Shown piece after piece: positions 14,425 through 29,993 of a stretch of 64,000 nucleotides of DNA. Source of the DNA: an uncultured Saccharothrix sp. (GTDB lineage: Bacteria > Actinomycetota > Actinomycetes > Mycobacteriales > Pseudonocardiaceae); assembly GCA_965995405.1 (NCBI GenBank), contig CBHFOL010000007.1:174-64173 (forward strand). The letters are read 5' to 3'. Each line of letters opens with the position of its first letter. Within the stretch, counting starts at the first letter, position 1. The position numbers and the translations under genes are program-made. The notes below the pieces were generated by a model that saw nothing but the letters and a program-made list of their open reading frames with translations, had not been told where the DNA came from and searched no databases.

Positions 14425-16332
14425 ATGCGAGGGGGCGGGATCCGGTTTGCGAGTCTGTCGGCGGCGGCGTGCGCGGCCGTGGTGGTGTTGTTGAGCGGGA
14501 CGGCGCCCGCACCGGCCGTTCAGGTGGCGGACGACTTGTACATGCAGGTTGTCGCACACCAGGACGACGACCTGTTGTTCATGAATCCCGACATCGCCGA
14601 GTCGATCCGGGCGAACGTCCCCAGTGTCACGGTGTTCGTCACCGCCGGCCAGATCACCGGGGACGGCGGCAGCGACGAAGAGCGCGCACGCAACCGGCAG
14701 CGCGGCATCCAGGATTCCTACGCGCGGATGGCCGGAGTACCCGACGACGACCCCGACGCGCAGGAGGAGTGGACCGGACAAGCCTGGCCGGTCGCGGGTC
14801 GGCAGGTGGAGCGGTACATCCTCAACGACCGGCCGACGGTCCACTTGGTCTTCATGAACCTGCACGACGGCGCGCTCGGCTCGGTGCGCGACTCCGGCCA
14901 CACCGACCACACCGTGATTCCGCAGAACGGCGTGGTCTCCCAGTCCTTCCCGTACGTCCGCGCCGACGTGGTGGCGGTGCTGTCGGGGTTGATGCGGCAG
15001 TACCGCCCCAGCCTGCTGCGCGCCCAGGATCCCTTGCCGGACAGCCGTTACAGCCCCGACCACAGCGACCACATCGCGGCGGCGCGGTTCGCCGGCGACG
15101 CGGCCACCGCGGCGGGCCTGCCGCTGGTGCAGGTCAACTACCGCGACTACAACATCGGGGACGCCCCGGTGAACCTGGCCGGCCCCGCCCGCACCCACAA
15201 GCGGGACATCCTGGCCAACTACCTGCGCTACGACCACGGGTTCAACCCGGGCGGCTGGCCGGACCGCATGTACTACCGCTGGGACCGGGGCACGTCCTGG
15301 GCCGGGCGCAACGCCGACGGCCGACCCCAGATCTTCGTGGTGCGCAACGGTTCCGTGCACACCTACTGGCAGACCCCGCAAGGCGGCTGGGCCGGTCCGC
15401 AGCCGCTGGGCGGCACCGGAGGACTCGTGACGCCGGCGATCGCGGTCGGCCGCAACGCCGACGGACGGTTGCAGATCTTCGCCCGCCGACTGTCCGACCA
15501 CCACATCGTCACCACCCACCAGACCCAGCCGAACGGCGGCTGGGCGACCGGCTGGACCGACCTGGGCAACCCGAACGCCGGGCTGGGCAACGAAGCCCAG
15601 GTCGGCGTACCCGCCGTGGCCGCCAACGCCGACGGCCGGCTGGAGGTGTTCGTCAAGAACGGCGGCGGCGGGGTCAGCACCGCCGACCAGACCCAGCCGA
15701 ACGGCACCTGGGGCGGCTGGGTGGACCTCTACGGCACCGATGTCCAGGACGGTCTCAGCGCCGTCACCAACCCGCAGGGCCGCATCGAACTGTTCGCGTC
15801 CACCCGTGACCGCGTGCTGCACTGGTACCAGCCGCAACCCAACAGCGGCTTCGTCCTGAACACGGCGCTGCCCGCGCTCCGACCGGCGAGCCCGCCGTCG
15901 GCCGCGCTGTCCCAGGACGGCCGCATCGAGGTCGCCTACCGGAAGGCCGACACCGCCGAAACCGTGATCAGCCACCAGATCCAGGTCGGCGGGAGCTGGA
16001 GCCCGACCCCGGTCGTGATCGGCGGCCACGCGGGGGTCGGCGAACCGGCCCTGGTCACCGCGCCACCGGGCCCGGACGCCCGGATCATGGTCTTCCACCG
16101 CAACGGCGGCAACGGCGTGAGCATGGCCAAACAACTGGGCCCCGACAACAAGTACGGCCCGTGGACCGACCTGGGCGGCGTCATCATCGACTACCCGGCG
16201 GCCACCCTGACCGCCGGCGGCGCGGTGGTCCTGTTCACCATCGGCACCGACGGCGCGATCTACCTGAGGCAGCAGACCACACCCGGTGCCGACAGCCCGT
16301 TCGGCGACTGGCAGATGCTCAGCCGCGACTAG
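14425..16332 (+). CDS. Secreted PIG-L/LmbE-family deacetylase with C-terminal repeat (lectin-like beta-propeller) domain
   Basis: Signal peptide, VAHQDDDLLFMNPD, DHSDH; repeated NADGR(L/P)(E/Q)(V/I)F..W units. Confidence 0.8.
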   Translation: MRGGGIRFASLSAAACAAVVVLLSGTAPAPAVQVADDLYMQVVAHQDDDLLFMNPDIAESIRANVPSVTVFVTAGQITGDGGSDEERARNRQRGIQDSYARMAGVPDDDPDAQEEWTGQAWPVAGRQVERYILNDRPTVHLVFMNLHDGALGSVRDSGHTDHTVIPQNGVVSQSFPYVRADVVAVLSGLMRQYRPSLLRAQDPLPDSRYSPDHSDHIAAARFAGDAATAAGLPLVQVNYRDYNIGDAPVNLAGPARTHKRDILANYLRYDHGFNPGGWPDRMYYRWDRGTSWAGRNADGRPQIFVVRNGSVHTYWQTPQGGWAGPQPLGGTGGLVTPAIAVGRNADGRLQIFARRLSDHHIVTTHQTQPNGGWATGWTDLGNPNAGLGNEAQVGVPAVAANADGRLEVFVKNGGGGVSTADQTQPNGTWGGWVDLYGTDVQDGLSAVTNPQGRIELFASTRDRVLHWYQPQPNSGFVLNTALPALRPASPPSAALSQDGRIEVAYRKADTAETVISHQIQVGGSWSPTPVVIGGHAGVGEPALVTAPPGPDARIMVFHRNGGNGVSMAKQLGPDNKYGPWTDLGGVIIDYPAATLTAGGAVVLFTIGTDGAIYLRQQTTPGADSPFGDWQMLSRD

Positions 16333-17732
16333 CTCCCGACGAAGATGGACGACCCGGCGGCCGGGACGAAGCGGGCCTGGAAGAACCGCAGCACATGGGG
16401 TTCGTGCGTGAACGTGAGGCCGCTGGTGATCGTGTCGCGGTTGCGGTGGAGGTGGATGACGCTGTCCGCGACATGATCCATGTGGGTCTGGGTGTAGACG
16501 CGGCGCGGGATCGCCAACCGGAGCAGTTCCAGCGCCGGGAACCGGTTCTGCCCGGTCACCGGGTCCCGACCGGCGGACACCCCGCCACGTTCCACGCCAC
16601 GGATACCGCCGGACACGTAGAGCGCGGCGGCCAGAGTCTGCCCGGGGAACTCGTCCCGGGGAATGTCGGGCAGCATCGCGGCGGCGTCGATGCAGACGCA
16701 GTGGCCGCCGATGGGGCGGACCACGGGCACACCCGCGTCGTGCAGCCGGTCTCCCAGGTACTCGACCTGGGCCACACGAGCCCGGATGTGGTCCTCGTCC
16801 ACGGATTCCGCGATCCCCTGGGCAATCGCCTCCATGTCCCGCCCCGCCCTGCCGCCATATGTGTGCAGCCCCTCGTAGAGCAGGACCAAAGCACGGGCCT
16901 GCTCGGCGATCTCCGGGTCACGCAAGCCGATCCAGCCGCCGATGTTGGCAATACTGTCCTTTTTGGACGATACGACGGCACCATCCGTCGGCGCACACAA
17001 GGCAAGCAGGATCTCCGCCACCGAACGATCCGCCCAACCGGGTTCGCGTTGCTTGACGAACCAGGCGTTCTCCACGGCCCGCGCCGCGTCCAGGTAGACC
17101 GGGATCCCATTGGCGTGCGCCAGTTCGCACACCGCGGTCAGGTTCGCGACGCTGATGGGCTGGCCACCCGCCATGTTGACCGTCGCGGCGATCGACACGT
17201 ACGGGATCCCTTCCCGGCCGAACTTCGTGATCACGGTCTGGAGCTTGTCCAGATCCACATCACCCTTGAACGGGTGTTCCGACACGGGGTCGTGGGCCTC
17301 GTCGATGATGACGTCGTGGAAGGTCGCGCCGTTGGCTTCCTGGTGGGCGCGGGTACTCGCGAAGTACATGTTGCCGGGGATGTGGGTGTCCGGCCGGATC
17401 AGGCAGTGCGACAGGATGTTCTCCCCGCCGCGCCCCTGGTGCACCGGCACGATGTGCGGATAGCCGTAGTGGGACTGGATCGCCGCTTCGAGCACGTAGA
17501 AGCTGCGCGCCCCGGCATAGGCTTCGTCGCCGCGCATCAGGGCCGACCACTGGAGGTCCGACATGGCCCCGGTCCCGGAATCCGTGAACAGATCGATGTA
17601 CACGTCCTCCGCACGCAGCAGGCACGGGTTCCAGCCCGCCTCGCGGATCACGCGCTCCCGGTAGTCGCGGGTGGTGGCCCGCATGGGCTCCACCATCTTG
17701 ACGCGCCAAGGCTCGGGTTCGTAAGTGGTCAT
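16329..17732 (-). CDS. PLP-dependent beta-eliminating lyase (tyrosine phenol-lyase/tryptophanase family)
   Basis: EPWRVKMVEP, DLFTDSGTGAMS, GDEAYAG, HQGRGGE, SSKKD (PLP Lys), IPRRVYT, LRFFQARF. Confidence 0.93.
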   Translation of the reverse strand: MTTYEPEPWRVKMVEPMRATTRDYRERVIREAGWNPCLLRAEDVYIDLFTDSGTGAMSDLQWSALMRGDEAYAGARSFYVLEAAIQSHYGYPHIVPVHQGRGGENILSHCLIRPDTHIPGNMYFASTRAHQEANGATFHDVIIDEAHDPVSEHPFKGDVDLDKLQTVITKFGREGIPYVSIAATVNMAGGQPISVANLTAVCELAHANGIPVYLDAARAVENAWFVKQREPGWADRSVAEILLALCAPTDGAVVSSKKDSIANIGGWIGLRDPEIAEQARALVLLYEGLHTYGGRAGRDMEAIAQGIAESVDEDHIRARVAQVEYLGDRLHDAGVPVVRPIGGHCVCIDAAAMLPDIPRDEFPGQTLAAALYVSGGIRGVERGGVSAGRDPVTGQNRFPALELLRLAIPRRVYTQTHMDHVADSVIHLHRNRDTITSGLTFTHEPHVLRFFQARFVPAAGSSIFVGS

Positions 17733-18877
17733 GTCAGGACACCTCTTTCCGTTGTCGCGCCGACCTTCAGCCGGTCCAGCAGTGGTCCGGTCATCGCGGT
17801 CGTCACCAGCGCCATGACGACCATGGCGGTGTAGAAGGCGCTGTCGATGACGCCCAGCTCCAACCCGATGGCCACGAAGACGAGCTCGGTGATGCCGCGC
17901 GTGTTCATCAGGACGCCGAACACGGCGGCGGTCCGGGGTGGGTGCCCGGCGATCCGGGCCCCGAGGTAGCCGCCGCCGACCTTGCCGAGCACCGCGACCC
18001 CGACGACCGCGCCGATCTCCAGCAGCAGCAACGCGTCCAGGCTCCCGATGTCGACCCGCCGACCGACCTGGACGAAGTACAGCGGGGCGAGCAGCGCCGC
18101 GATCGGGACGACGAGCCCGGCGTTGCCCCGCCCGACGGCGATCCCGGCCAGGAACGCCCCGATGGCGCAGTGCAGACCGGCCGTCTCGGTGACCGCCGCG
18201 CACCCGCACGCCACCACGACCAGCAGCGTCACCGAACCGGAAATCCGGTCCGTCCGGCGCGCGATCCGGGCCAGTCCGAAGAGCAGCAACAGGAACGGGA
18301 CGACGAGCACCGTCGACCAGCTGCCGCCGTGCAGCCCGGCGACGACGACGGCGAGCGCGAGCCACGCGACGGCGTCCGTGATCGCCGCCACGACCAGCGC
18401 CCGCTGCCCGTCCTCCCGGTCGAGCAGACCCCGTTCGGCGAGAATCCTTGCCAGCACGGGAAAAGCGGTGACGGACATGGCCGCCCCGGCGAACAGCACG
18501 AACACCCACGTGCCCGCCGGGGCGTGCCGTGCGAGCGGCAACGCCAGTGCCGCACCCGCCACGAACGGCACAACCGTCACCCAGCACGCCAACGGCAGCG
18601 CGGCCGTGACGCGCCGACCGGACACCGACGGCGCGATGTGCGCACCCACGCAGAACACGAACAGCACCAGCCCGAGCTGCGCCACGGTGTCCACTGTGGA
18701 CTCCACTCGGTCGGGCAGCCGCACGCCGCCGGCCGCCAGGACGACCCCGAGCACCAGCCCGCACGCGATCTCCCCGACCACGGCGGGCTGGCCGACCCTC
18801 GTCGCCGCCGACCCGAACACCCGGGCCAGCCCGAGCAGTGCGGCCAGCACGCCGAGCAGGAGAGCGAGGTCGGTCAC
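17729..18877 (-). CDS. Cation/H+ antiporter (CPA2)
   Basis: GQPAVVGEI, AMSVTAFPVLARIL, TDAVAW, LMNTRGITELV; many TM helices. Confidence 0.88.
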   Translation of the reverse strand: MTDLALLLGVLAALLGLARVFGSAATRVGQPAVVGEIACGLVLGVVLAAGGVRLPDRVESTVDTVAQLGLVLFVFCVGAHIAPSVSGRRVTAALPLACWVTVVPFVAGAALALPLARHAPAGTWVFVLFAGAAMSVTAFPVLARILAERGLLDREDGQRALVVAAITDAVAWLALAVVVAGLHGGSWSTVLVVPFLLLLFGLARIARRTDRISGSVTLLVVVACGCAAVTETAGLHCAIGAFLAGIAVGRGNAGLVVPIAALLAPLYFVQVGRRVDIGSLDALLLLEIGAVVGVAVLGKVGGGYLGARIAGHPPRTAAVFGVLMNTRGITELVFVAIGLELGVIDSAFYTAMVVMALVTTAMTGPLLDRLKVGATTERGVLT

Positions 18878-20286
18878 GGCGTCGAGCCGGCGAGCGCGGG
18901 CACGACCCACCGCCTGCCGTCCGTCGACGGCACCAGACCACCGGGGAACACCGGCGGCTCGTCGCCCGCCGCCTCGCCCAGGACACCCCGCGCCTGGAGG
19001 CTCATGCCCTCCACCAGCATGTCGCCGAGCACGTCCGAGTCCAGCGCGGATTCCGGCCGCCGCGCGAAATCGGCCCCGGACACCCCGCCTACGAGGTCCA
19101 CGAACGCCTCCAGCCTGCTCCCCCGGTGCTCGGTGAGCTGCCTGGCCTGCCAGAAGTAGGACCGCTCGTCGGCGTGCAGCCCGTAGAACGCGACGAGGAA
19201 GTCCCGGAACAGCGCGAACTCCCGCCGGTACCGGGCCTCGAACTCGGCGAAGCTCCGCCCCTCGTCCAGATCCCCGGCCAGCACGCTGTTGACCGACCGG
19301 GCCGCGAGCAACGCGCTGTAGGTGGCCAGGTGCACCCCGGATGAGAACACCGGGTCGATGAAGCACGCGGCGTCGCCGACGAGCACCATCCCCGGTCCGA
19401 AAAGGACCGTCCGGTCGTACGAGTAGTCCTTGCGCACCCGCAACCGGTCGTAGGGCGGCTGCCCGGCCCGTCGCGCATCGCTCAGGTTCTCCGCGATCAT
19501 CGGACATTCACCGATCAGCGCGGCGTACGCGGCCTCCGGATCGCCCTGGACCTTCGCCGCCGCCTCACGTTTGACGACCGCGCCGACGCTGGTCAGCGTG
19601 TCCGACAGCGGAATGTACCAGAACCAGCCGGACCGGAACGCGACGCACAGGATGTTGCCGGAGTTCGGCGCGGGCATCCGCTTCCCGCCCTCGAAATACC
19701 CGAACAGGGCCAGGTTCCGGAAGAACGGCGAGTACTCGCGCAGCCCGCCGATGTCGTTGTGCAGCCGACTGCCGTGTCCCGACGCGTCCACCACGAACCG
19801 GGCCGTCGCGACCCGCTCGACACCGGAGTCGTCGATGTACCGCACGCCGCGAATCCGGTCGCCGTCCCGGACGGTGCCGATCGCGCGACTGCCCTGCCGG
19901 ACGTCCACGCCCACCCGCTTGGCGTTGTCCAGCAACAACTTGTCGAATTTCAAGCGCTCGACCTGGTAGGCGTAGGAACACGGCCCGGCCATCCGCTCCG
20001 ACGCGGCGAACGCGAACGTCCACGGCTCGGGGTTGGCACCCCACCGGAACGTCCCGCCGCGCTTGCGCGTGAACCCGGCCCGCTCGATCTCGTCCCGCAG
20101 CCCGAGCATCGGGCAGATCCCGTGCACGGTGGCCGGCAGCAGCGACTCCCCGATCTGGTACCGGGGGAAGACATCCTTGTCCAGCAACAGGACCCGGTGA
20201 CCATCCATTGTGGTCAGCGTCGCGGCGGTCGAACCGCCGGGGCCGCCGCCCACCACGATGACGTCGAATTCGTTGTCGACCGGCAT
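18874..20286 (-). CDS. Flavin-dependent halogenase, carrier-protein-dependent type
   Basis: GGGPGG, FPRYQIGESLLP, RKRGG (catalytic Lys region), WFWYIP, GDAACFIDPVFSSGVHLA. Confidence 0.92.
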   Translation of the reverse strand: MPVDNEFDVIVVGGGPGGSTAATLTTMDGHRVLLLDKDVFPRYQIGESLLPATVHGICPMLGLRDEIERAGFTRKRGGTFRWGANPEPWTFAFAASERMAGPCSYAYQVERLKFDKLLLDNAKRVGVDVRQGSRAIGTVRDGDRIRGVRYIDDSGVERVATARFVVDASGHGSRLHNDIGGLREYSPFFRNLALFGYFEGGKRMPAPNSGNILCVAFRSGWFWYIPLSDTLTSVGAVVKREAAAKVQGDPEAAYAALIGECPMIAENLSDARRAGQPPYDRLRVRKDYSYDRTVLFGPGMVLVGDAACFIDPVFSSGVHLATYSALLAARSVNSVLAGDLDEGRSFAEFEARYRREFALFRDFLVAFYGLHADERSYFWQARQLTEHRGSRLEAFVDLVGGVSGADFARRPESALDSDVLGDMLVEGMSLQARGVLGEAAGDEPPVFPGGLVPSTDGRRWVVPALAGSTP

Positions 20287-20290
20287 GTCC

Positions 20291-22066
20291 TCACGACTCC
20301 TTCACTGCGTCAAGGCGAAATCCGGGCACCAGCAGGGCAAGTCGCGCCACCGTGCGCAGGTTCAGCACGTCGCGCAACGAACACGGCACCCCCGCCGCAC
20401 GCAGGCGGGAGGCGATCGCGGCGGCGGACAGGCTGTGCCCGCCGAGTTCGAGGAAGTCGCTGTCGGCCGTGACGGCTTCGGCGTCGCCGAGCACCGCGCG
20501 GAACACGTCCGCCACCAGTTCCTGCTCCGGCGACATCCGGTCCGCCGGCTCGACCGGGGGCGCGAACAACGCCTCCCGGTCGATCTTCCCGTTGTGGCCC
20601 ACCGGCATCTCCGCCACCGGCACCACGGCCGACGGCACGAGGTACCCGGGCAGCGCCTCCCGCAGCAGCTCCCGCACGCCGGTCACGTCGGCACCCGGAA
20701 CGGGCACGACGTAGGCCACCAGCCGCCGGTCGACACACGTGCCCTCCACCCGTACCACCGCCTGGCGCACCTGCGGCAGCCCGCGCAGCACGTGCTCGGT
20801 CTCCCCCGGCTCGACCCGGTGACCGCGGATCTTGACCTGGTCGTCCAACCGCCCCAGCCACTCCAGCCGGCCACCGGCACCGGCCCGGCACAGGTCCCCG
20901 GTCCGGTACCAGCCGTCCACGAACCGCTCGGCGGTCAGCTCCGGCCGGTTCAGGTAGCCCTCGGCCACGCACCGCCCGCCGATCAGCAGCTCACCCGGCG
21001 CGCCTTGGGGCACCGGGCGCAGCCGGTCGTCCACGATCCGCACGCGGGTGTTGCCGATGGGACGCCCGATCGACGGCGTGTCGCACTCGTCCAGCCGGCA
21101 CGCCGTGGCGAACACCGCGCACTCCGTCGGCCCGTACAGGTTCACGGCGGCCAACCCGGGCGTGGTGCGCAGCCGCGACCACATCTCCTGGCAGGCCGCC
21201 TCTCCGCCGACGAGCAGCAGCCCCGGCCGGGTGCCGGGTTCCAGCAGCCCGGCCTCGGCGAGCGCCAACAGGTGGGCGGGCACGGTCTCCACGACCGATA
21301 TCCGGCGTTCGGCGACGAACCGCACGTACTGTTCCGGGTCGGCGCGGACGTCGTCGGGCACCAGGTGCACCTCGTGCCCGCCGACCATCCACAGGAGAGG
21401 GTCGAACGACGCGTCGAACGCCAGCGGCAGCCCGTGCGCCACCCTGGCACCGCGCCCCACGATCGGGAAGTACCGCGCCACCAGTTCCCGGTAGAGGTTG
21501 ACCAGGCTCGCGTTGCCGACGACCACGCCCTTCGGCGTGCCGGTGGAACCGGAGGTGTAGATGACGTACGCGGGCCCGTCCACCGCCTGGTACAGCGGAC
21601 GGTCGCTGTAGCCGTCGAGATCGGCCTGCCGGTTCTCGACGTCGAGCACCATCCGCACGCCGACGCCGACCTGCGCGGGCACGTCGGTCAGCACCACCAC
21701 GGGATCGGCGTCTGCCAGGACGACCTTGGCCCGGGCCGGCGGCAGGTCCGGGTCGACCGGCAGGTACGCGGCCCCGGTCTTCGCGACCGCGAGCAGCCCG
21801 ACCATCGCCCGCACGGAACGGGTCAGCGCGCACGCCACGATCGTGCCCGGCCCCGCACCGGCTTCCCGCAGCGCGCGCCCGAGCCGGTTGCTCCACCGGT
21901 CGAGCTCCCGGAACGTCCACTTGCGACCGTCCGCGACCAGGGCCACGTCCGACGGCCACACCTCGGCGTGCCGCTCGAACAGCTCCCACCAGCCGACCGG
22001 AGGAACCGCCCGCACCGGACCCGCCACCACCGCCTGCCGACCGGCGGCACCCATCCTGGAATCCAT
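20291..22066 (-). CDS. Stand-alone NRPS adenylation-PCP didomain
   Basis: YVIYTSGSTGTPKG, FDAS, NLYGPTE, YRTGDL, GRLDDQVKIRGHRVE, NGKIDR, PCP LGGHSL. Confidence 0.93.
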   Translation of the reverse strand: MDSRMGAAGRQAVVAGPVRAVPPVGWWELFERHAEVWPSDVALVADGRKWTFRELDRWSNRLGRALREAGAGPGTIVACALTRSVRAMVGLLAVAKTGAAYLPVDPDLPPARAKVVLADADPVVVLTDVPAQVGVGVRMVLDVENRQADLDGYSDRPLYQAVDGPAYVIYTSGSTGTPKGVVVGNASLVNLYRELVARYFPIVGRGARVAHGLPLAFDASFDPLLWMVGGHEVHLVPDDVRADPEQYVRFVAERRISVVETVPAHLLALAEAGLLEPGTRPGLLLVGGEAACQEMWSRLRTTPGLAAVNLYGPTECAVFATACRLDECDTPSIGRPIGNTRVRIVDDRLRPVPQGAPGELLIGGRCVAEGYLNRPELTAERFVDGWYRTGDLCRAGAGGRLEWLGRLDDQVKIRGHRVEPGETEHVLRGLPQVRQAVVRVEGTCVDRRLVAYVVPVPGADVTGVRELLREALPGYLVPSAVVPVAEMPVGHNGKIDREALFAPPVEPADRMSPEQELVADVFRAVLGDAEAVTADSDFLELGGHSLSAAAIASRLRAAGVPCSLRDVLNLRTVARLALLVPGFRLDAVKES

Positions 22067-22739
22067 CACGATTTCTCCTGACCCGACAGCACAGCGCGGA
22101 ATCGTCGCTCCACCCGTGGTGCGGCGCGCGGCGACTCGTCGAGCACCGGACCCACAAAAAGGCAGAGAATCCCGATCCGACCGCAACGCGTGCGGCCGAC
22201 AATTATTCGCCTTACCAGCTCAGCACACCCGATGAATGGCCGGCACCGGACGTACCACTCCACCCGGACCACACACCCGACGGTATTGGCCGACCGTGCG
22301 AACCGTGCTGAAAGCTTAAGTTCACCCGACCGGATGCAACGTAACGGTTGTATTGCAAACTATGGCGGACTCCGAGCCACCCGCCCTGACCAGGCACGGA
22401 CCCGCCAGAATGGCCTGAAGAATCTTCACAGGAGACCCTGGAAACCGAATTACCACCACTCCTGACAGTGTTATCCGCGGGCTCGTCCGCGCTTTTCACT
22501 CGAATAGGCGACCCGGCGGACCGGGAGCTTCGCCGGCAGACGCACTTAGGGTGTCTGCCATCCCTTTGGCGCACCCGGTTGTCCGGTCCGGGTGAGGTCG
22601 GCGCGGTCCCGCCGGTGCGCGGAGCGAGTGATAACCGTGCGTGAACGGCTGAACTCCGTCGCGGACATTGGTTTCACGCCGGCGGTGGCGCGACGATCGG
22701 ACGCCCGGCGTCGGGCCGGCCGTCCGGGCTGCGGCGCAC

Positions 22740-22933
22740 CGATCAGCGCGGTCGACGCGGACCGGGCGAAGTTCACGCCGCCCGTGCCCTGGCGACCGCT
22801 GTTGGACGCGCGGGGCGACCGCACCATCTGGCCCATCCAGTTCGCGCCGGCCGGGATGAACGCGCACATCAACCACGACCTGGCGCCGGCGGGCAAGCTG
22901 CTGCTCACCCCCGTGGTGCCGCCGCCCGAGTGA
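22740..22933 (+). pseudogene. DUF5995-like gene remnant (internally deleted)
   Basis: WRPLLDARGDRTIWPIQFAPAGMNAHINHDL joined directly to a C-terminal-like GKLLLTP; no plausible start; 5' limit approximate. Confidence 0.6.
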
Positions 22934-22953
22934 CGTCAGCCGGCCGTGTGACG

Positions 22954-23631
22954 TCAGGCAGTGTTCGTGACGTCGGATGTTCGCGCAGCGGCGAGGCTGA
23001 GCAGGCCGCAGCCGTAGGACTTGGCCCGGCCGATGCCGCTGACCAGCGCGTCCGCCAGCGCCGTCGGGTCGGTGACGATCAGGTGGCCGTCGAACCGCAC
23101 GGGTTCCACGGTGATCTTCCGGCGGTCCTTCCGCCCGGTCAGGGTCGGTACACCCGTCGGGGTGACGTCCGGTCGGCCGCGCCGGTCGGTGGGGATGACG
23201 AAGCCGTGCCGCTCGCCTTTCCCGACCAGCCACTCGATTTGCCGGTCCGGCCGCCGATGCGCGACCCGGCGCGCGACGCCCTGTTCGTCGCGGACACAAC
23301 GGGTCGGGTTGGCGAGCAATCGGAAAGCGAACTTCCGGCCCGGCGCGATGGCGTCGAGAACCGGTTGCAGGGACCGGACTTCGGCCGGGCGCGTCAAACG
23401 GTCGGCGGGAAGTCCGGTCCAGTCCGGCGTGGTGCGGCTTTGCACATACTGCACGCAGCCGCCGTCGAATGCGTCGATACGCCACAGCACGCCGTGCGCC
23501 TGGCGAAAAGTCTCGGTGTCGGACAGTTCCGGGTAGGCCGACATGACCGTGCGGTGCATGTCGTGCACGTCGGCCGCGTCACGGCGAAACGTGTGGGAGC
23601 GCGTGTTGACGGTGAGTTTGCTCAGGAACAC
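22954..23631 (-). CDS. cas6e: Type I-E crRNA endoribonuclease Cas6e
   Basis: DVHDMHRTVM, VLWRID, VQSRTTPDW, FRLLANPT, GIGRAKSYGCGLL G-loop. Confidence 0.95.
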   Translation of the reverse strand: MFLSKLTVNTRSHTFRRDAADVHDMHRTVMSAYPELSDTETFRQAHGVLWRIDAFDGGCVQYVQSRTTPDWTGLPADRLTRPAEVRSLQPVLDAIAPGRKFAFRLLANPTRCVRDEQGVARRVAHRRPDRQIEWLVGKGERHGFVIPTDRRGRPDVTPTGVPTLTGRKDRRKITVEPVRFDGHLIVTDPTALADALVSGIGRAKSYGCGLLSLAAARTSDVTNTA

Positions 23632-24305
23632 GTGTTCTCCCCGCGGTCTTCCGGGCGCACCTCGCCGATGCGGACCGACCGGGAACCGAAACGCCGGTTT
23701 CCCCGGGCGAAGCTGATGGGCTGATCGTGCCGGACCTGTGCCAACGGGTAGTCCGGCGCACATTCCACGACCGTCCGCAGCGGAACGGCGGTCCGGGCGT
23801 TCGTCTCCAGCCACGGGTGCTTGCGCAGCACCTCGTCCGTCGACCGTCCGGTCGGCCGCGCGTCGGGCCCCAGGAGCGGACGGGCGGGCACGTATGCCTT
23901 GCGCCCCAAGGACAAGGGCCAGTGCGGCTGCCGCACCGCCGATGCCACCCGGCCCAGCAGTCGGCCGTCTCCCGCCAGCACCACCAGGAACAGCGCGTCG
24001 GCCAGGTAGTAGCGCTCGCTGACGACGGTCCGGCGTCCGGTGCCCTGGGTGGTGGGCACGTTCTGCGTGGTCTGGAAATCGCGCTCCAGCACGCCTTCCC
24101 GGTCCACCCGCACCGCCAGCCGCAACCCGGCCAGTTCGGCGATCGCGAGTTCGTCGTCCCGCTCGACGCCGAGCGCCGCCGCCAGCAGCCCGACGACACC
24201 GGACTTGGTCGGCTCGGCCATGGTGTCCCGGACGATGCCACGGGACCGGATCCCCCACGACTGCATCGGCGCGTCGAAGCACAGCGCCAGCGTCCCGTCG
24301 GTCAT
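23622..24305 (-). CDS. cas5: Type I-E Cascade subunit Cas5
   Basis: DAPMQSWG, PTKSGVVGLLAAALG, VRVDREG, RYYLADA, LSLGRKAYVP. Confidence 0.95.
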   Translation of the reverse strand: MTDGTLALCFDAPMQSWGIRSRGIVRDTMAEPTKSGVVGLLAAALGVERDDELAIAELAGLRLAVRVDREGVLERDFQTTQNVPTTQGTGRRTVVSERYYLADALFLVVLAGDGRLLGRVASAVRQPHWPLSLGRKAYVPARPLLGPDARPTGRSTDEVLRKHPWLETNARTAVPLRTVVECAPDYPLAQVRHDQPISFARGNRRFGSRSVRIGEVRPEDRGENTCS

Positions 24306-24312
24306 CGGGCGA

Positions 24313-25428
24313 TCACCTCGTGGCGGCCAGGACCGTGTCGGCGAAGTCGTCGACACTCGACGCCTCCGTCACCCCGTCCGGGCAGGACAGCCCGCCGGTC
24401 ACCGACGCGGCGGTGGCGGTGCGGATGTCCTTGCCGCCGTAGAAGTCCTTTGTCTTCCCGAAGTGCGCCATGAGCAGCCTGGTCGAGTTGGCCATGAGGT
24501 CGTCGCGCACGGGGTTGAGGAACGCGTTGGCCAGGTTCCACGCGCCGCGGTCGCGGACGACACCGAGCAGGGTGTCCGGCATGGTGCGGGCCGCCGTCGA
24601 GTTCTGCATCCCGCCGGGCACGGCGTTGATGAACGCGTACAGCCAGGCGCGCGCCGCCCGTTCGGCGAGGTCCACATCGCCGCGCAGGTTCTTCGCCAGC
24701 TGGGTGAGGTCGACGTTGGCATAGCGGTAGTAGCAGGCGGAGTTGAAGTCGACGGTGCCGATCATGTCCGCGCCCGACTCGTCGTGGGGCTTGAGGTCGT
24801 CCACGGCGGTGTAGAAGTCGAACTCGGTGACCACGGTGTGCGTGGAGATCGCGTGCGCGACCTGGGAGGCGGCGTCGACGTTGAGGTCCTTGTTGTCGGC
24901 GATCATCCGGCCGAAGAGGGCGACGTCGGCGGCCCGGCCCGCGTCCAGGATCCGGCTCGCCTCGGCCTGGCCGGCCTTGTCCAGCTTGACCTTCGCCTGT
25001 TTGCCGGCGGTCTTGGCGGACGCGAGCCGTTCCAGGGCTTCCCAGTGGTCCAGGCAATGCCGGGCCAGGGTTTCGATGGATTCCTGGCTGACGAACAACA
25101 GGTACTCGGTCAGCCCCTTGTCCTGGTCGACGCCGAAACCGAGTTGCCGGATGGCCTCGATCACGACGGCCCGCGCCTGATCGCGGTCCTTCCTGCGGTC
25201 GACCAGGATCTCGACCACGTTGTCCAGCAACCGTTTGGTGCGGACACCGCTCTCGGACTTGTCCAGCCCGTAGTCGTTGAACAGCAGCCGCGCCGAACGT
25301 TTGATGCTCTGGCTGGAGATCCGGCCGCGCACGTGACCGCCGAAGGTGGCCGTCTTGGGCTGACCGGTGTCGTCCCGGTTCAGGTTGCTGACGGGGAACG
25401 ACTGGAGCAGGTGGAGTTCGATGATCAC
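24313..25428 (-). CDS. cas7: Type I-E Cascade backbone Cas7
   Basis: IELHLLQSFPVSNLNRDDTGQPK, RISSQSIKR, ALFGRM, VAHAISTH, DFYTAVDD, YYRYANV. Confidence 0.96.
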   Translation of the reverse strand: MIIELHLLQSFPVSNLNRDDTGQPKTATFGGHVRGRISSQSIKRSARLLFNDYGLDKSESGVRTKRLLDNVVEILVDRRKDRDQARAVVIEAIRQLGFGVDQDKGLTEYLLFVSQESIETLARHCLDHWEALERLASAKTAGKQAKVKLDKAGQAEASRILDAGRAADVALFGRMIADNKDLNVDAASQVAHAISTHTVVTEFDFYTAVDDLKPHDESGADMIGTVDFNSACYYRYANVDLTQLAKNLRGDVDLAERAARAWLYAFINAVPGGMQNSTAARTMPDTLLGVVRDRGAWNLANAFLNPVRDDLMANSTRLLMAHFGKTKDFYGGKDIRTATAASVTGGLSCPDGVTEASSVDDFADTVLAATR

Positions 25429-26027
25429 GTGGTTGGCTCCGGTGGCTCGGTGGTGTCGACCGGTTCCTCGTCGCGTTCGGCCGAGACCGGCATGTGGTAT
25501 TCGCGGGCCCACTTCAGGCGGATCCGACCCGCCCGGTCGCCGCGAGGGTCGTTTCCCAGCAGCACCACCAGGTCGTCCAACAGGGCGTGGTAGTCGACGG
25601 GCACGTCGTGCGCGGACAGCAGGCGGACGGCTTGCCGGAGGTGGTGCGGCAGGGCGGGCCCGTCCCTGGCGAGCAGCTGGGTGAACCGGCGGTGGACGGA
25701 GGTGTTGTCGAGCTTCTTGGCGAGTCGACCGAAGGAAGCGCCCAGCGTGCGTGGCCCTGGTCCCGACTTCCAGACCTTCGGGTGCAGGGCGTACAGGCCG
25801 CCGACGAGGAGCCAGGTGTCCTGTTCCGCCTCGTTGTCCGGCGGGTCGGCGCGGAACACGATCTCGTACGCCTCGACCTGCCTGCCGTCGGTGAAACTGT
25901 TGCGCAGCACGGCAAGTTGGCGACGCGACTGGGCCGCGACGGCCGGGTTGGCCGAACCTCGCGCGCCGTCGAGACCGTACAGGCGTTTGACGTAGTCGTT
26001 GCGCCGCTTGACGATCGGGTCAGTCAC
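25425..26027 (-). CDS. cas11: Type I-E small subunit Cas11 (Cse2/CasB)
   Basis: Position between cas8e and cas7; GLYALHP, RRFTQLL, HLRQAVRLL, VDYHALLDDL, WAREYH. Confidence 0.9.
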   Translation of the reverse strand: MTDPIVKRRNDYVKRLYGLDGARGSANPAVAAQSRRQLAVLRNSFTDGRQVEAYEIVFRADPPDNEAEQDTWLLVGGLYALHPKVWKSGPGPRTLGASFGRLAKKLDNTSVHRRFTQLLARDGPALPHHLRQAVRLLSAHDVPVDYHALLDDLVVLLGNDPRGDRAGRIRLKWAREYHMPVSAERDEEPVDTTEPPEPTT

Positions 26028-27636
26028 CCGGCTCCTCCGTTCCGGTGGAATAGGCGTGGGTATCGGCCAGGAACCTGTGCCGCGCGGTGGCGAGACGACT
26101 CCGGAACCGGCCCATGTGTTTGCCCAGCACCATCAGCTTGGACGCCTCCGTGGACGCGCCGGTGGCCCACCTGTCCGCCGTCGTCCGGGCGAGTTCTTCG
26201 ACGGTGTGCCCCCACCTTCGGGCGACGGGGTGTTCCGACCGGCCGTTGTTCCTCACCTCGCCGAGGCGGACCAGGAATTCACCGAACGGTCCGGGCAGCT
26301 GTGGCCAGTAGCCGAGGTCTATGTCTGCCAGGACCTTGGCCCTCAGCTCACGGCGGTATTCGGTCTGTAGGGCGCGCAGTGCCGAACCCGCTTCGTCGGC
26401 CAGGGTGATCGCGCAGCCCAGGAGCGCGCCGAGGCTCTCGTCCTTCGCCCGCACCAGCGCGACCGGCGCGGGTACCTCCTCCTCCAGCCACGCTTCCACC
26501 ACCGACGCCTTGGAGTCGAGTTGCTGTCCGAAGACGCGCAAGGTGTAGACCGTGTCGGCGGGCAGGTGCTCCGCCAGCTGTGCGATCTGGTCGAGCGCCG
26601 GCGGACGTTGCCGGGTCTTCTGCTCTTCCCAGAGGTCGACGAGGAGCAGTTCGACGCTGTGCCGCCAGATGCCACGGACTTGACGCAGCCGCACGGGCAG
26701 CAGGGGAACGTCCCGCTTGGGTTTGCCCTTGGTGTCCCGGGGAATCCGGAAGGCCGCCATCTTCTCCTCGTCGGAGAGCCTGACGTCCAGCCGGGTGCCC
26801 GGGGTGAGCACGACTCCGTCGACCATCGGAGGGCTGCTCGTGCGGTCGACGGAGAGCAGGATGCGCCTCGACGGCCAGGTCAGCAGATCGGTCCAGCCGC
26901 GCGCCGTGCGTTTGTCGGGAGTCGGGGGCGGGGCCGCCCTTTCCCAGGCCGGGGCGTCGGCGACCGTGGTCATGGCCGGCTTTTCGAGTTCCGGCTCGTA
27001 CACCAGGGCGTTGAGCAGCAAGGTCTCCTTGAGGTTCTTACCTTCCACAAGCACGATGCCCAACGAGTTGCCGGGCGCTTTCTCGGACGATTTGTCCTTC
27101 TGGTACGGGGTCTTCATGCCGCCGGGGTCGAAGGCTTGGGCGGTGACCAGCCACCGGGCCGCTTCCGCGGGGCTGAGCAGCAGACGGTCGCTCGACGTCG
27201 TGTGGTCGAACAACGTGACGTTGTTGCCGACAGCCCGATACGGCACGAGTTTGCCCGGTGAGGAAGGTGCCAGGGTGGACAGACCCGGGCATTGCAGAAA
27301 CGGCCGTTCGGGGTGGAACAGGTCGAACCTATCCGGGTGCCGGTCCAGGTACTGGCGTAACGGTTCGGCCGGAAGTCGGCCGTCCTGCCACAACTCCACC
27401 CACGCGGTTTCGGTCGACGGGCCGTAGACCCGGTGGAACAAGGCGATGACCAGCCGGTGCAGCGCCGCCGTCATCGTCGGCGCTTCCGCCGCGATCCGCC
27501 GGAATTCGTGGGCCTGGCGAAGGAGGTCCGCCAGGTTGACCAGGTCCGGTTCACCGCTGAGCCGGACGACAGGTACCCACGGTTCCGCCGTGAGATCGAA
27601 GGACCGGGACAGTTCAGCGCCGTCAGGTGTGTTCAT
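26020..27636 (-). CDS. cas8e: Type I-E large subunit Cas8e (Cse1/CasA)
   Basis: FDLTAEPWVPV, LHRLVIAL, RFDLFHPERPFLQ, LFDH, AARWLV, NLKETLLLN, TWPSRRI. Confidence 0.94.
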   Translation of the reverse strand: MNTPDGAELSRSFDLTAEPWVPVVRLSGEPDLVNLADLLRQAHEFRRIAAEAPTMTAALHRLVIALFHRVYGPSTETAWVELWQDGRLPAEPLRQYLDRHPDRFDLFHPERPFLQCPGLSTLAPSSPGKLVPYRAVGNNVTLFDHTTSSDRLLLSPAEAARWLVTAQAFDPGGMKTPYQKDKSSEKAPGNSLGIVLVEGKNLKETLLLNALVYEPELEKPAMTTVADAPAWERAAPPPTPDKRTARGWTDLLTWPSRRILLSVDRTSSPPMVDGVVLTPGTRLDVRLSDEEKMAAFRIPRDTKGKPKRDVPLLPVRLRQVRGIWRHSVELLLVDLWEEQKTRQRPPALDQIAQLAEHLPADTVYTLRVFGQQLDSKASVVEAWLEEEVPAPVALVRAKDESLGALLGCAITLADEAGSALRALQTEYRRELRAKVLADIDLGYWPQLPGPFGEFLVRLGEVRNNGRSEHPVARRWGHTVEELARTTADRWATGASTEASKLMVLGKHMGRFRSRLATARHRFLADTHAYSTGTEEPGD

Positions 27637-29993
27637 GCTGTGCTGTACTTCTCCCGGGTGCGGCTGGAGTCCTTGCTGTTCCTGGTCAGTTCGTCCAGTC
27701 GGCTGACCGCGAGCGGTGCCGGGAGGTACATCAGACGGGCCTCGCGACCGGACGCCTCACGGGAGCGGGTCAGTTTCTCGTCGGCCGCCTGCCACGCCGT
27801 TTCCCAGCCCGGTGGGCAGGCGACTGCTTCCGGCGGCCCGTACAGCGCGTCGACCAACGTGGGCACTTCTCCGGGAAGTTCCAGCGACTTCCGGTCGCGC
27901 AGGAGAGCCCAGGTCCGCAGCACCGTCATCGGTGCGTAGACCTTGTCCAGGTAGCGGGGGAACTCCGGCCCCGCGTCGGTATCCGTGACGCCCGCGATGG
28001 CCAGGACGGGCGTGCCTCGGACGGCGTGCCGGTGCAGTCGTCCGGCGCGCTGGATCAACCGGTCCACCGGGGCGAGGTCGGTGAGCATCGCGTCGAAGTC
28101 GAGATCGAGGCCCCCTTCGAGTACCTGGGTGCCGATCACGATCGCCCGTGGTCGCGTCCCGCCGGGGCCGAAGGAGGTGCGGAGTTCCTCCTCCGCCTTT
28201 CGCCGGTCGGACGCGGTCAGCTTGCCGTGGATCATGATCAGCCGGGGCCGCTGCCGTGTCGGGAGGAGCGCGATCCGATCGGCCAGGGTGTCGTGGGTGG
28301 CGGTCACCCTGCCTCTGAGGTTGTGCATGACCACGGCGCAGCCGCCGTCCGCCACCCGGTCCAGCGCCCAGTCGGCGATCCCGTCGTCGGTGACCCGGGC
28401 GAGGACGAGCCTGCGACCGCTGTTCAGGTCGGAGAGGCCGGCCGGTTCGACCGCCGGCCGGCCGGTGCCCGCCACGGTGACCCTCGGGTAGTCGGCCGAC
28501 GCTTCGAGCCTCGGGACCTCCCTGGGCAGGCAGCCGAGGAGTCCGGACTGCCAGGCGGCCACCAGGTCCTGGCGGCGGGCGGCGGGCAGGGTGGCGGTGA
28601 GCAGGACGACGGACACGCCGAGTCTGCCGAGCCAGTTCAGGAGCCGGTCGAGCAGCGTCGACATGTAGGTCGCGTAGGCGTCGACCTCGTCCACCACCAG
28701 GACTTTGTTGGTCAACGCGGTCAGCCGCACGAAGCCGTGCCCCGATCGCAGCACGGCTTTGAGCGCCTGGTCGACCGTGCCGACGCCGATCGTCGCCAGC
28801 AGGCTCTTCTTCCGGGTGAACCACTCCTGCGCTTGGAGGTCGGAGTCGTCCTCGTCGTCCCGGCCGATGTCGGTGGGCGTGGTGGCGCGCTTGTCGAGGT
28901 GTTCCTTGGCGTTGGAGTGGATCAGGCTCACCGACACGCCGGCGTCATGGCCCTTCACCAGGGCTTCGAGTTCATCGAACAGTTGGTTGCCGGTGGCCTG
29001 GGTGGGCATGGCGACGTATGTGCCGACGAGCCCGAGGTTGCGGACGAGCGCCGCCGCCGCTTGGAGCGCGGCCTTGGTCTTCCCTTCGCCGGTCGGTGCC
29101 TCGATCACCACCAGCGTGGGTTCGTCGCGGTCGACGGTCATCCGTTCCACCACGGTCTGCACCGGTCGCGGTCGGTCGGGGAACAGTTCGGCGAACTGTC
29201 GGGGCGGCGTCCACGCGCGGAGGTCGAGTCGGTCGACGGCGTTGTCCGCCAGCTCGGCCAGTGTTCCGGCGTAGTGGCGGAGGTCGGTGGTGTCGGCGAA
29301 CGGGAAGTTCCCGGTGTCCGAGGCGATCCAGTCGCTGATGGTCGCCAGCGCGGCGAGCCCCACCGCTGCGGGGACGCTGACGTGCACGTCCGACCACGGC
29401 AACGTGCTCGGGTCGGGCAGGCCGCGCAGTTGTGCGATCTGCCGGACGAAGTCGCCGCGCCAACCCTGCCAGGTGGCCCGGCCGTGGTTGTTGACCTCCA
29501 GCCGTGCCTGCTGGAGTGCGGACGCGGCGGGAAAGTGCCCGTGATGGCCGCCGAGCGCGACCGCGAGCCAGTCGGCGCTCTGCGCGGGCGCTCCCCAGGA
29601 CAGCAGGAGTTCCTTGAGCTGCACGGCAGTCAGCACCCCGTGGGGCGTGTCGATCCGCCGCCCGATCCCTTCCCGTTTCCGCACCCGCCTGATGTCGGCC
29701 GCGGCCACTTCGCCGAACCGGGACACCGCGAGGTCGGCTTGGAGGCCCTGGAACGTCGGGGCGTACTTGCCCAGGTCGTGCAGGCCGCACAGGGTGGCGA
29801 TCCACGAATCCACCTGCCCGAGCGGGTGGAACGCCGTGCGTAACTCGTCCCGGCAGCGCGGCCCGATGAACAGGTCGAAGGCACGTTCCGCCACGGCTGC
29901 GGTATCGAGCACGTGACATGCCAGAGGGTGGCTCGACTCTCGTCGGGACTTTCCCCAAGGTGCCCAAGCCGGTGGGGTTTCGTTTTTCGTCAT
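27633..29993 (-). CDS. cas3: Cas3 HD nuclease-helicase (786 aa; DEVD variant; short C-terminus)
   Basis: HPLACHVLD, LHDLGK, GGHHG, SDWIAS, APTGEGKT, DEVD, TATLP, QRAGRLHRH. Confidence 0.93.
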   Translation of the reverse strand: MTKNETPPAWAPWGKSRRESSHPLACHVLDTAAVAERAFDLFIGPRCRDELRTAFHPLGQVDSWIATLCGLHDLGKYAPTFQGLQADLAVSRFGEVAAADIRRVRKREGIGRRIDTPHGVLTAVQLKELLLSWGAPAQSADWLAVALGGHHGHFPAASALQQARLEVNNHGRATWQGWRGDFVRQIAQLRGLPDPSTLPWSDVHVSVPAAVGLAALATISDWIASDTGNFPFADTTDLRHYAGTLAELADNAVDRLDLRAWTPPRQFAELFPDRPRPVQTVVERMTVDRDEPTLVVIEAPTGEGKTKAALQAAAALVRNLGLVGTYVAMPTQATGNQLFDELEALVKGHDAGVSVSLIHSNAKEHLDKRATTPTDIGRDDEDDSDLQAQEWFTRKKSLLATIGVGTVDQALKAVLRSGHGFVRLTALTNKVLVVDEVDAYATYMSTLLDRLLNWLGRLGVSVVLLTATLPAARRQDLVAAWQSGLLGCLPREVPRLEASADYPRVTVAGTGRPAVEPAGLSDLNSGRRLVLARVTDDGIADWALDRVADGGCAVVMHNLRGRVTATHDTLADRIALLPTRQRPRLIMIHGKLTASDRRKAEEELRTSFGPGGTRPRAIVIGTQVLEGGLDLDFDAMLTDLAPVDRLIQRAGRLHRHAVRGTPVLAIAGVTDTDAGPEFPRYLDKVYAPMTVLRTWALLRDRKSLELPGEVPTLVDALYGPPEAVACPPGWETAWQAADEKLTRSREASGREARLMYLPAPLAVSRLDELTRNSKDSSRTREKYSTA

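Follow-up and report, generated by a model that had tools for sequence, protein, structure and literature searches.

A 64,000-nucleotide stretch of DNA from an uncultured Saccharothrix species (contig CBHFOL010000007.1; the whole stretch is referred to below as the window) carries, at positions 16329-22066 of its minus strand, four genes that form a real, conserved and translationally coupled operon. The genes encode a stand-alone adenylation-peptidyl carrier protein didomain (A-PCP) of the non-ribosomal peptide synthetase (NRPS) type, an FADH2-dependent halogenase, a monovalent cation/proton antiporter and a pyridoxal phosphate (PLP) enzyme that resembles tyrosine phenol-lyase (TPL). Considering 27 copies of this cassette together, we put at about even the chance that tyrosine is loaded onto the carrier protein, chlorinated there, hydrolysed off and finally cleaved to a chlorophenol, pyruvate and ammonia. 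More tentatively, and at somewhat below an even chance, the cassette may represent a mobile route of soil actinomycetes from tyrosine to free chlorophenol, with a natural '3-halotyrosine phenol-lyase' and an antiporter that protects the producer, and would then be one branch of a wider family of routes to 2-substituted (chloro-, methoxy- and hydroxy-) phenols. The parts of the cassette all come from known families; the literature searched describes neither their combination nor the lyase clade nor the route that these imply. Indeed, full-text searches for TPL or tryptophanase together with halogenase, gene cluster, carrier protein or chlorophenol biosynthesis returned no description of this gene set, only reviews and enzyme-engineering papers. 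We regard the chlorophenol hypothesis as well supported by comparison but unproven.

Gene content and conservation of the cassette

Genes were called from third-position GC (the G+C content of the window is ~71%) and cross-checked against a six-frame list of open reading frames (ORFs), and families were assigned with Pfam. The A-PCP gene (20291-22066, minus strand; 591 amino acids, with an alternative start possible at 22030) matches AMP-binding (1e-77), AMP-binding_C and PP-binding (6e-12). Its product contains the motifs A3 (TSGSTGTPKG, 21527-21556), A5 (YGPTE), YRTGD, GRLDDQVKIRG and A10 (NGKIDR, 20576-20593), as well as the carrier-protein motif GGHS (20432-20443). With a score of 359 for TIGR01733 (cutoff 317) and no condensation domain found in it, the protein classifies as a stand-alone A-PCP. 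A gap of 4 nucleotides (GGAC) separates its stop codon from the ATG of the halogenase gene (18874-20286, minus strand; 470 amino acids; Trp_halogenase PF04820, 4e-66). The latter shares a GTGA overlap with the antiporter gene (17729-18877, minus strand; 382 amino acids, GTG start; Na_H_Exchanger PF00999, 2e-38), which in turn overlaps by ATGA with the lyase gene (16329-17732, minus strand; 467 amino acids; Beta_elim_lyase PF01212, 1e-70). A preliminary description of the stretch, made from the sequence alone, had already called a co-oriented four-gene operon with intact catalytic motifs. Its coordinates proved exact, the junctions comprising one 4-nucleotide gap and two 4-nucleotide overlaps, and a check of motifs and residues showed those of the A-PCP, the halogenase and the lyase to be intact.

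When the lyase was used as query against one genome per prokaryotic species, 80 loci were obtained. At 26 of these, all in Pseudonocardiaceae genomes, the A-PCP, halogenase, antiporter and lyase genes follow each other in the same order and are tightly coupled, the sole missing gene being the antiporter in Actinophytocola. The carriers among the 26 loci include 21 Amycolatopsis (A. orientalis DSM 40040, A. vancoresmycina and A. regifaucium among them), two Saccharothrix, one Kutzneria and one Actinophytocola. Clustering of the flanking proteins revealed essentially no neighbours common between genomes, and the conservation over 27 genomes with unrelated flanks rules out a chance adjacency of the genes. 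The preliminary description had taken the lyase to belong with the other three genes, which is borne out by its occurrence in all 27 copies, each time as the last gene of the operon and in a clade of its own. Cassette-type lyases (at least 77% identical) were found in 4 of 151 sampled Pseudonocardiaceae genomes, that of the window counted, and, within the host genus, in 3 of 47 species. The lyases of the remaining two carriers in this genus are 84% and 81% identical to that of the window, values that agree with those of the two Saccharothrix loci named above and by themselves would make Saccharothrix the most probable source of the window. This rarity in genus and family indicates that the cassette travels as a unit, and judging from the compared genomes it behaves as a self-contained, patchily inherited and horizontally mobile one. 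In Amycolatopsis sp. MtRt-6 the cassette is present on two scaffolds (19 and 28), with the same gene layout and coordinates over ~21 kb and identical lyases; either the assembly is redundant here or a large segment was recently duplicated.

In 22 of the 27 copies a fifth gene is located directly upstream of the A-PCP gene on the same strand. It encodes a protein of ~260 amino acids with a GFSMGA nucleophile elbow, identified as a thioesterase (TE; PF00975, 7e-25). The TE gene is not adjacent in the window, the two Saccharothrix, Kutzneria and A. anabasis, and the lyase tree suggests repeated losses of it. The host genome (8.39 Mb in 573 contigs, 93% complete) contains no TE orthologue, the best match being 39% identical. 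A variant locus in Pseudonocardia eucalypti (L046) encodes an A-PCP-TE-MbtH fusion, followed by a halogenase (59% identical), an Na_H_Exchanger protein and a lyase; as far as comparison can tell, it is an independently built version of the cassette. The TE in 22 copies and the TE fusion in L046 imply that a free amino acid is to be expected as an intermediate. Hydrolytic release of the free amino acid would then be the normal logic of the system, with the window copy needing a TE in trans. Pfam found no condensation, TE or ketosynthase domain in 40 further predicted genes spread across the window, all but a few of those predicted. The earlier statement that such genes are lacking thus holds for the scanned genes of the window but not for the system, considering the widespread TE.

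The closest solved relative of the halogenase is CndH (3e1t; E 8e-158, residues 6-406), the chondrochloren tyrosyl halogenase. The motifs GGGPGG (20233-20250), WFWYIP (19609-19626) and FIDPVFSSG (19336-19362) correspond to the GxGxxG, WxWxIP and Fx.Px.Sx.G signatures; the catalytic Lys lies in KRGG (20053-20064, within KRGGTFRWG). Together with the close similarity to CndH, these features place the enzyme in the CndH/BhaA group. With the halogenase encoded in the vcm cluster of A. orientalis it shares 66% identity, and the cassette halogenase of A. orientalis itself has two paralogues at 66-67% identity. The vcm paralogue is flanked on contig C62 by seven NRPS modules on one side and a stand-alone A-PCP on the other; an antiporter gene is 15 kb distant. 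The region concerned (C62:83882-132265 of strain DSM 40040, with the seven NRPS modules, the halogenase at 116318, a BpsD-like A-PCP at 125798 and the antiporter at 131081) is the vancomycin cluster, as recognised from its gene content. A third halogenase of the CndH/BhaA type in the same genome (67% identical, contig C42) is located beside very large NRPS genes. The characterised glycopeptide members of the group take aminoacyl-PCP substrates (PMC5620994), in agreement with the type of halogenase that had initially been proposed. By analogy, the window enzyme would act on an aminoacyl-S-PCP rather than on a free amino acid.

The antiporter matches PF00999 over profile positions 9-368 of 375, and thus contains the transmembrane domain of the CPA2 family. 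Pfam detected no domain besides this membrane domain (no KTN/TrkA), and the TIGR00932 score of 96.8 is under the cutoff of 238. The gene is present in 26 of the 27 cassettes, being absent only in Actinophytocola (L006), and also in the Pseudonocardia variant; none was found beside TPL-like genes that are not linked to a halogenase. With the other antiporters of A. orientalis, including that of the vcm cluster, the cassette protein shares only 36-42% identity. Since it is as conserved as the enzymes of the cassette, the antiporter must matter. The earlier remark that such antiporters accompany glycopeptide clusters is supported by the literature, in which ion antiporters recur in these clusters without a known role there (PMC11727664, PMC12049478). 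In addition, TPL requires K+ (PMC10170061). The candidate roles are protection against a protonophoric chlorophenol, supply of K+ or other cations for the TPL-like enzyme and halide-linked ion balance, any of which may apply.

The lyase clade and its sister operons

The lyase of the window matches the TPL structures 1c7g and 2ez1 over its full length at E 1e-159, with an identity of roughly 55-60% as read off the printed alignment rather than computed, and the tryptophanases at 1e-130. Its score for the tryptophanase model TIGR02617 is 482, where the cutoff is 826. We mapped 82 lyase homologues onto the numbering of Citrobacter freundii TPL. Tyr71, Arg100, Glu103, Asn185, Asp214, Lys256/257, Arg381, Arg404 and Phe448/449 are invariant across the homologues, and the PLP-binding Lys of the window enzyme lies in an SKKD motif. 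In tryptophanase, Asp137, Ile396 and His463 (E. coli numbering) stand for Thr124, Arg381 and Phe448 of TPL. The residues that separate TPL from tryptophan indole-lyase are Thr124, Met288, Met379, Arg381 and Phe448, and only Val379 of the window lyase agrees with the tryptophanase consensus (PMC5805759). The TPL-type Arg381 and Phe448, together with the TPL score above that of TnaA, rule out a tryptophanase and make the indole product that had been entertained in the preliminary description unlikely.

In TPL, Arg381 is the general base and Tyr71 the acid; Thr124 fixes the phenol hydroxyl and is crucial for the beta-elimination of tyrosine (PMC10170061). The catalytic set (Lys257, Tyr71, Arg381, Arg404, Asn185, Asp214 and Phe448/449) is kept in 27 of 27 cassette lyases. 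The changes Y33W, T35P, F36C, L48F, A102G, S378G and M379V likewise occur in all 27 and are not found in the non-actinomycete homologues, which keep F36, T124 and M379. T124P is present in 26 of the 27, the window copy having Ala, and T125S in 25. The pocket of the window lyase thus differs from that of TPL by F36C, T124A, T125S, M288L, S378G and M379V, so that Thr124, Met379 and Phe36, the last of which is also a pocket residue of TPL, are all replaced. Leu for Met288 is shared by the cassette lyases and most homologues. At window positions 17355-17366, lyase residues 123-126 read YFAS; no other cassette lyase among the 27 has Ala at position 124.

Several of these replacements have counterparts in engineered enzymes. 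M379V is the standard mutation to open TPL to 2-substituted phenols and 3-substituted tyrosines, and a mutation of residue 378 was selected on 2-iodophenol (PMC13578870). Moreover, a phenol-lyase evolved in the laboratory has, and depends on, Pro at the equivalent of position 124 (PMC5805759). The clade thus keeps the phenol-cleaving machinery and alters residues in contact with the ring edge and the hydroxyl, as would be expected for an ortho-halogenated, more acidic phenol.

In a maximum-likelihood tree of the lyase homologues, the 27 halogenase-linked lyases form one clade (support 100/100). Within it the Saccharothrix pair is the sister group of the window lyase (100/96), and the whole is nested in a 42-member actinomycete clade (100/100), sister to Gemmatimonadota TPLs with a canonical pocket. 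The neighbourhoods of all sister lyases but that of L029 were covered, nine loci by Pfam and four more by their identical gene layout. All sister lyases so covered reside in small operons, next to O-methyltransferases and/or a P450-A-PCP fusion with a hydrolase. At six loci in Streptomyces and Actinomadura (L031, L032, L036-L039; e.g. L031:9968-17537, with the A-domain code DGAIAALVLK in the fusion) the operon comprises the lyase, an O-methyltransferase, a P450-A-PCP fusion of ~1040 amino acids, an alpha/beta hydrolase and a second O-methyltransferase. Pocket residues of the lyase there are G36/T379 (C379 in L032), and the operon may be a route to a methoxylated, guaiacol-type phenol. The lyases of Kitasatospora (L028, L034), Nonomuraea (L027), Saccharopolyspora (L026), Halostreptopolyspora (L030) and Nocardia (L035) lie beside one or two O-methyltransferases, some of the catechol O-methyltransferase type. 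The genome of the window itself contains a second TPL-like paralogue (contig C149, 3457-5884, minus strand; 70% identical), directly downstream of an O-methyltransferase gene. Residues 36/379 in the sister lyases are G/T, S/A or C/V. No description of these operons was found in the searched literature.

The recurring pattern, as read from these operons, would be modification of the ring, often while carrier-bound, followed by release, cleavage by a widened TPL and sometimes methylation. Of the comparative evidence, this pattern is the strongest support for a route to substituted phenols, and it fits a wider lyase family that would release 2-substituted phenols from ring-modified tyrosine. The sequence of loading, halogenation and beta-elimination suggested in the preliminary description thus gains support from the widened pocket and from the sister lyases next to O-methyltransferases, but it left out the release by a TE.

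Probable substrate, proposed route and rival explanations

The specificity codes of the A domains were derived by alignment with a PheA fragment and, in addition, with the actual A domains encoded in the vcm cluster of A. orientalis. For the latter, the expected codes were recovered for Leu (DAFYLGMMCK), Tyr/beta-hydroxytyrosine (DTSKVAAICK, and DASTLGAICK of module 6), Asn (DLTKLGEVGK), 4-hydroxyphenylglycine (Hpg; DIFHLGLLCK and DAVHLGLLCK of modules 4 and 5), 3,5-dihydroxyphenylglycine (Dpg; DPYHGGTLCK) and the BpsD-like protein (DAATLAAVAK). The window A-PCP is 55-66% identical to its orthologues at the 26 loci. The cassette code, DA[D/F]ELGLVFK, in which position 239 depends on the placement of a one-residue gap, is nearly invariant over the 27 copies and has Glu where the Hpg and Dpg domains carry His. 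It suggests a para-hydroxy-aromatic amino acid, Tyr being one candidate. The code of L046, DASTIAAVCK, shows a 7/10 match to the vcm Tyr codes (module 6 and BpsD-like) and in this comparison is clearly of the Tyr type. With moderate confidence we consider Tyr the likely substrate, because it alone among the para-hydroxy-aromatic amino acids both requires no additional pathway genes and could serve the adjacent lyase.

In the proposed route, the A domain would adenylate L-Tyr, or a very close para-hydroxy-aromatic amino acid, and load it onto its own PCP. The halogenase, judged by homology, would chlorinate the tethered ring ortho to the hydroxyl with FADH2 from a reductase encoded elsewhere. 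The halo-aminoacyl thioester would be hydrolysed by the type II TE or the fused TE in most genomes, and in trans or spontaneously in the case of the window. Finally, the lyase would cleave the free 3-chloro- or 3,5-dichlorotyrosine between C-beta and C-gamma to yield 2-chlorophenol or 2,6-dichlorophenol, pyruvate and ammonium. A free carboxylate in the lyase substrate is consistent with the conserved carboxylate-binding Arg404. The CPA2 antiporter would be an obligate partner and may provide ion and pH homeostasis against the protonophoric chlorophenol, or supply cations. The identity of the substrate, the number and position of the chlorines, the direction of the lyase and the product are all predicted from sequence.

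Several points weigh against this route. The lyase scores 642.4 bits for TIGR02618, under the TPL equivalog cutoff of 720.7, and passes only the broad 'tryptophanase' subfamily model NF009709 (597 versus 285). In the cassette lyases Thr124 is replaced, the residue crucial for the beta-elimination of tyrosine (PMC10170061). In addition, wild-type TPL takes o-chlorophenol (PMC10170061), so that a mono-chloro substrate would not strictly call for a wider pocket. The code DA[D/F]ELGLVFK is not a recognised Tyr code; of its 10 positions, 6 agree with the vcm Hpg codes and 5 with the Tyr code of module 6. Five copies, that of the window among them, go without a TE, and no orthologue of it was found in the host genome; the antiporter has no assigned role. 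Moreover, the product, the transcript and the enzyme activities are all predictions, and as the chemistry of TPL is reversible its direction cannot be read from sequence.

This reversibility is central to a different explanation, in which a free halogenated aromatic amino acid (e.g. 3-chlorotyrosine, as antimetabolite or signal) is the end product and the lyase works in the synthetic or beta-replacement mode, to supply a tyrosine analogue, or balances the pools. Run in reverse, TPL converts substituted phenols to chloro-, bromo-, methyl- and methoxy-tyrosines (PMC10170061, PMC13578870), the TE releases a free amino acid, and a non-standard substrate would suit the non-standard code. However, the cassette encodes nothing that makes the phenolic arene which the lyase would have to condense, the lyase gene comes last in each of the 27 copies, and the pairing of the sister lyases with O-methyltransferases suits small phenols as products. 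Furthermore, synthesis by TPL needs high pyruvate, ammonium and phenol, cleavage being the physiological direction. We hold this explanation to be unlikely, albeit the least unlikely of the three considered here. Next in likelihood, and also doubtful, is the possibility that Tyr is not the substrate at all, and that the A-PCP and the halogenase use Hpg or another aromatic amino acid, with some unrelated, beta-substituted amino acid as the substrate of the lyase. Of the codes compared, those for Hpg (DIFHLGLLCK and DAVHLGLLCK) come nearest to DA?ELGLVFK, the loss of Thr124 would be in line with another lyase substrate, and TPLs also eliminate S-alkylcysteines and beta-chloroalanine (PMC10170061). 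On the other hand, genes of an Hpg pathway are lacking in the cassette, the phenol-specific Arg381, Phe448 and Phe449 (PMC5805759) are invariant, the independently assembled L046 has a Tyr-type code, and the strict co-inheritance of lyase and halogenase implies that both serve one line of substrates.

The explanation that we consider the least probable is that an NRPS encoded elsewhere receives chlorotyrosine, PCP-bound or free, from the cassette in trans, and that the lyase destroys surplus halotyrosine before it becomes toxic or is misincorporated. Stand-alone A-PCPs with tailoring enzymes do normally feed larger assembly lines, as in the case of bpsD/oxyD/bhp (PMC12049478). Many of the hosts are rich in NRPSs (A. 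orientalis has 41 A-domain matches), and the five copies without a TE could be read in this way. However, each genome has its own flanks, a condensation-domain partner does not accompany the cassette, and the cassette moves by itself between genera with very different NRPS repertoires. The dedicated TE in 22 of 27 copies speaks for hydrolytic release and not for hand-over, and a remodelled, clade-specific lyase exceeds the needs of housekeeping salvage. The chlorophenol route thus remains our preferred reading of the cassette, at the even chance given above.

Surroundings, implications and known systems

Within the window, membership of the cassette in a larger NRPS or polyketide synthase (PKS) cluster is ruled out, as the neighbours identified by Pfam are type I-E CRISPR-Cas genes, a gene for a PIG-L/lectin-like protein, desaturase, glycosyltransferase and GH130 genes, STAND genes, regulators and transporters. 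The cas3-cse1-cse2-cas7-cas5-cas6e operon (22954-29894) lies upstream of the cassette, on the same minus strand. No cas1 or cas2 was found among the scanned genes of the window, and no tandem-repeat array was detected in it. The upstream region of the cassette begins directly after cas6e and consists of 887 bp of non-coding intergenic DNA (22067-22953, minus strand), the presumed promoter, at the site that is occupied by the TE gene in 22 of the 27 relatives. In this gap, tblastn found no TE homologue, Rfam gave no riboswitch or leader RNA match and a sigma-70 consensus was not found; the DNA upstream of the cassette at the other loci is not similar to it. A plus-strand ORF of 113 amino acids (22592-22933), located between cas6e and the cassette, matches DUF5995 (PF19458, 2e-13) over profile positions 64-115 of 225 only and looks like a gene remnant. 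Downstream of the cassette are the convergent gene for the PIG-L/repeat protein and those for the desaturase, the glycosyltransferase and the GH130 enzyme. For the flanking PIG-L gene no syntenic orthologue suited to an empty-site comparison was found in the genus (best match 62% identical, on a 10.8-kb contig). The remaining genes of the window encode STAND NTPases, regulators and transporters. Large STAND-type genes are located at 1237-4230 (BTAD-NB-ARC-TPR), 42566-45298 (nSTAND1-WD40) and 53820-56900 (an AAA_16 protein of 1026 amino acids), and the richness in such genes fits a variable genomic region.

The natural chlorophenols of soil, wood and cork, among them the precursors of the chloroanisoles of cork taint, are currently attributed to the action of haloperoxidase on phenol, and the origin of 2,4,6-trichlorophenol in cork has been described as still to be elucidated (PMC11724547). 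If the proposed route is true, the operon would constitute a second, specific biogenic source of chlorophenol, directly from Tyr. The lyase clade would be the natural counterpart of the engineered M379V enzyme, which is run in reverse to obtain 3-substituted tyrosines for genetic-code expansion (PMC13578870), and thus a possible starting point for the synthesis of 3-halo-tyrosines. Finally, since halogenase and antiporter are also paired in glycopeptide clusters, the cassette offers a simple genetic system to study the function of the antiporter there.

A comparison with known systems puts the individual parts into perspective. The halogenase shares with CndH and BhaA/VhaA the motifs of the flavin-dependent halogenases and the catalytic Lys, and would share their carrier-bound aminoacyl substrates (PMC5620994), but those enzymes serve large PKS/NRPS lines whereas the window enzyme serves a cassette of four or five genes. 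The lyase has the PLP-binding Lys257, Tyr71, Arg381, Arg404 and Phe448/449 in common with TPL (EC 4.1.99.2) of C. freundii and Erwinia herbicola. The latter is a catabolic enzyme regulated by TyrR, whereas the window lyase is operon-linked and would be biosynthetic. Simple polyhalogenated phenols are also produced by the marine bmp and cyanobacterial ambigol pathways, through carrier-protein-linked or flavin-dependent halogenation. These pathways start from chorismate-derived 4-hydroxybenzoate and lose CO2, in contrast to the proposed route, which would start from Tyr and shed its alanyl side chain by means of a PLP lyase. The window operon contains neither a chorismate lyase nor a decarboxylating halogenase.

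A close parallel in logic is the bhp-bpsD-oxyD cassette (TE, A-PCP and P450), which makes free beta-hydroxytyrosine in glycopeptide clusters (PMC12049478). There, too, a stand-alone A-PCP loads Tyr, the tethered amino acid is tailored and a dedicated hydrolase frees the product, all within the same host family. Between the window A-PCP and the BpsD-like protein of A. orientalis the identity is 43%, and the codes are DA?ELGLVFK and DAATLAAVAK, respectively. The window copy lacks the dedicated TE that 22 of the 27 copies encode as a separate gene and L046 as part of a fusion. A P450 takes the place that the halogenase has in our cassette, and its amino acid goes to an NRPS where that of the cassette is apparently cleaved by the lyase. 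The operons that link TPL-like lyases to O-methyltransferases or P450-A-PCP fusions belong, like the cassette, to the 42-member lyase clade, have altered residues 36 and 379 and would follow the same logic of ring modification, hydrolase and lyase. They differ in having O-methyltransferases and a P450 instead of the halogenase, in going without the antiporter and in keeping Thr124.

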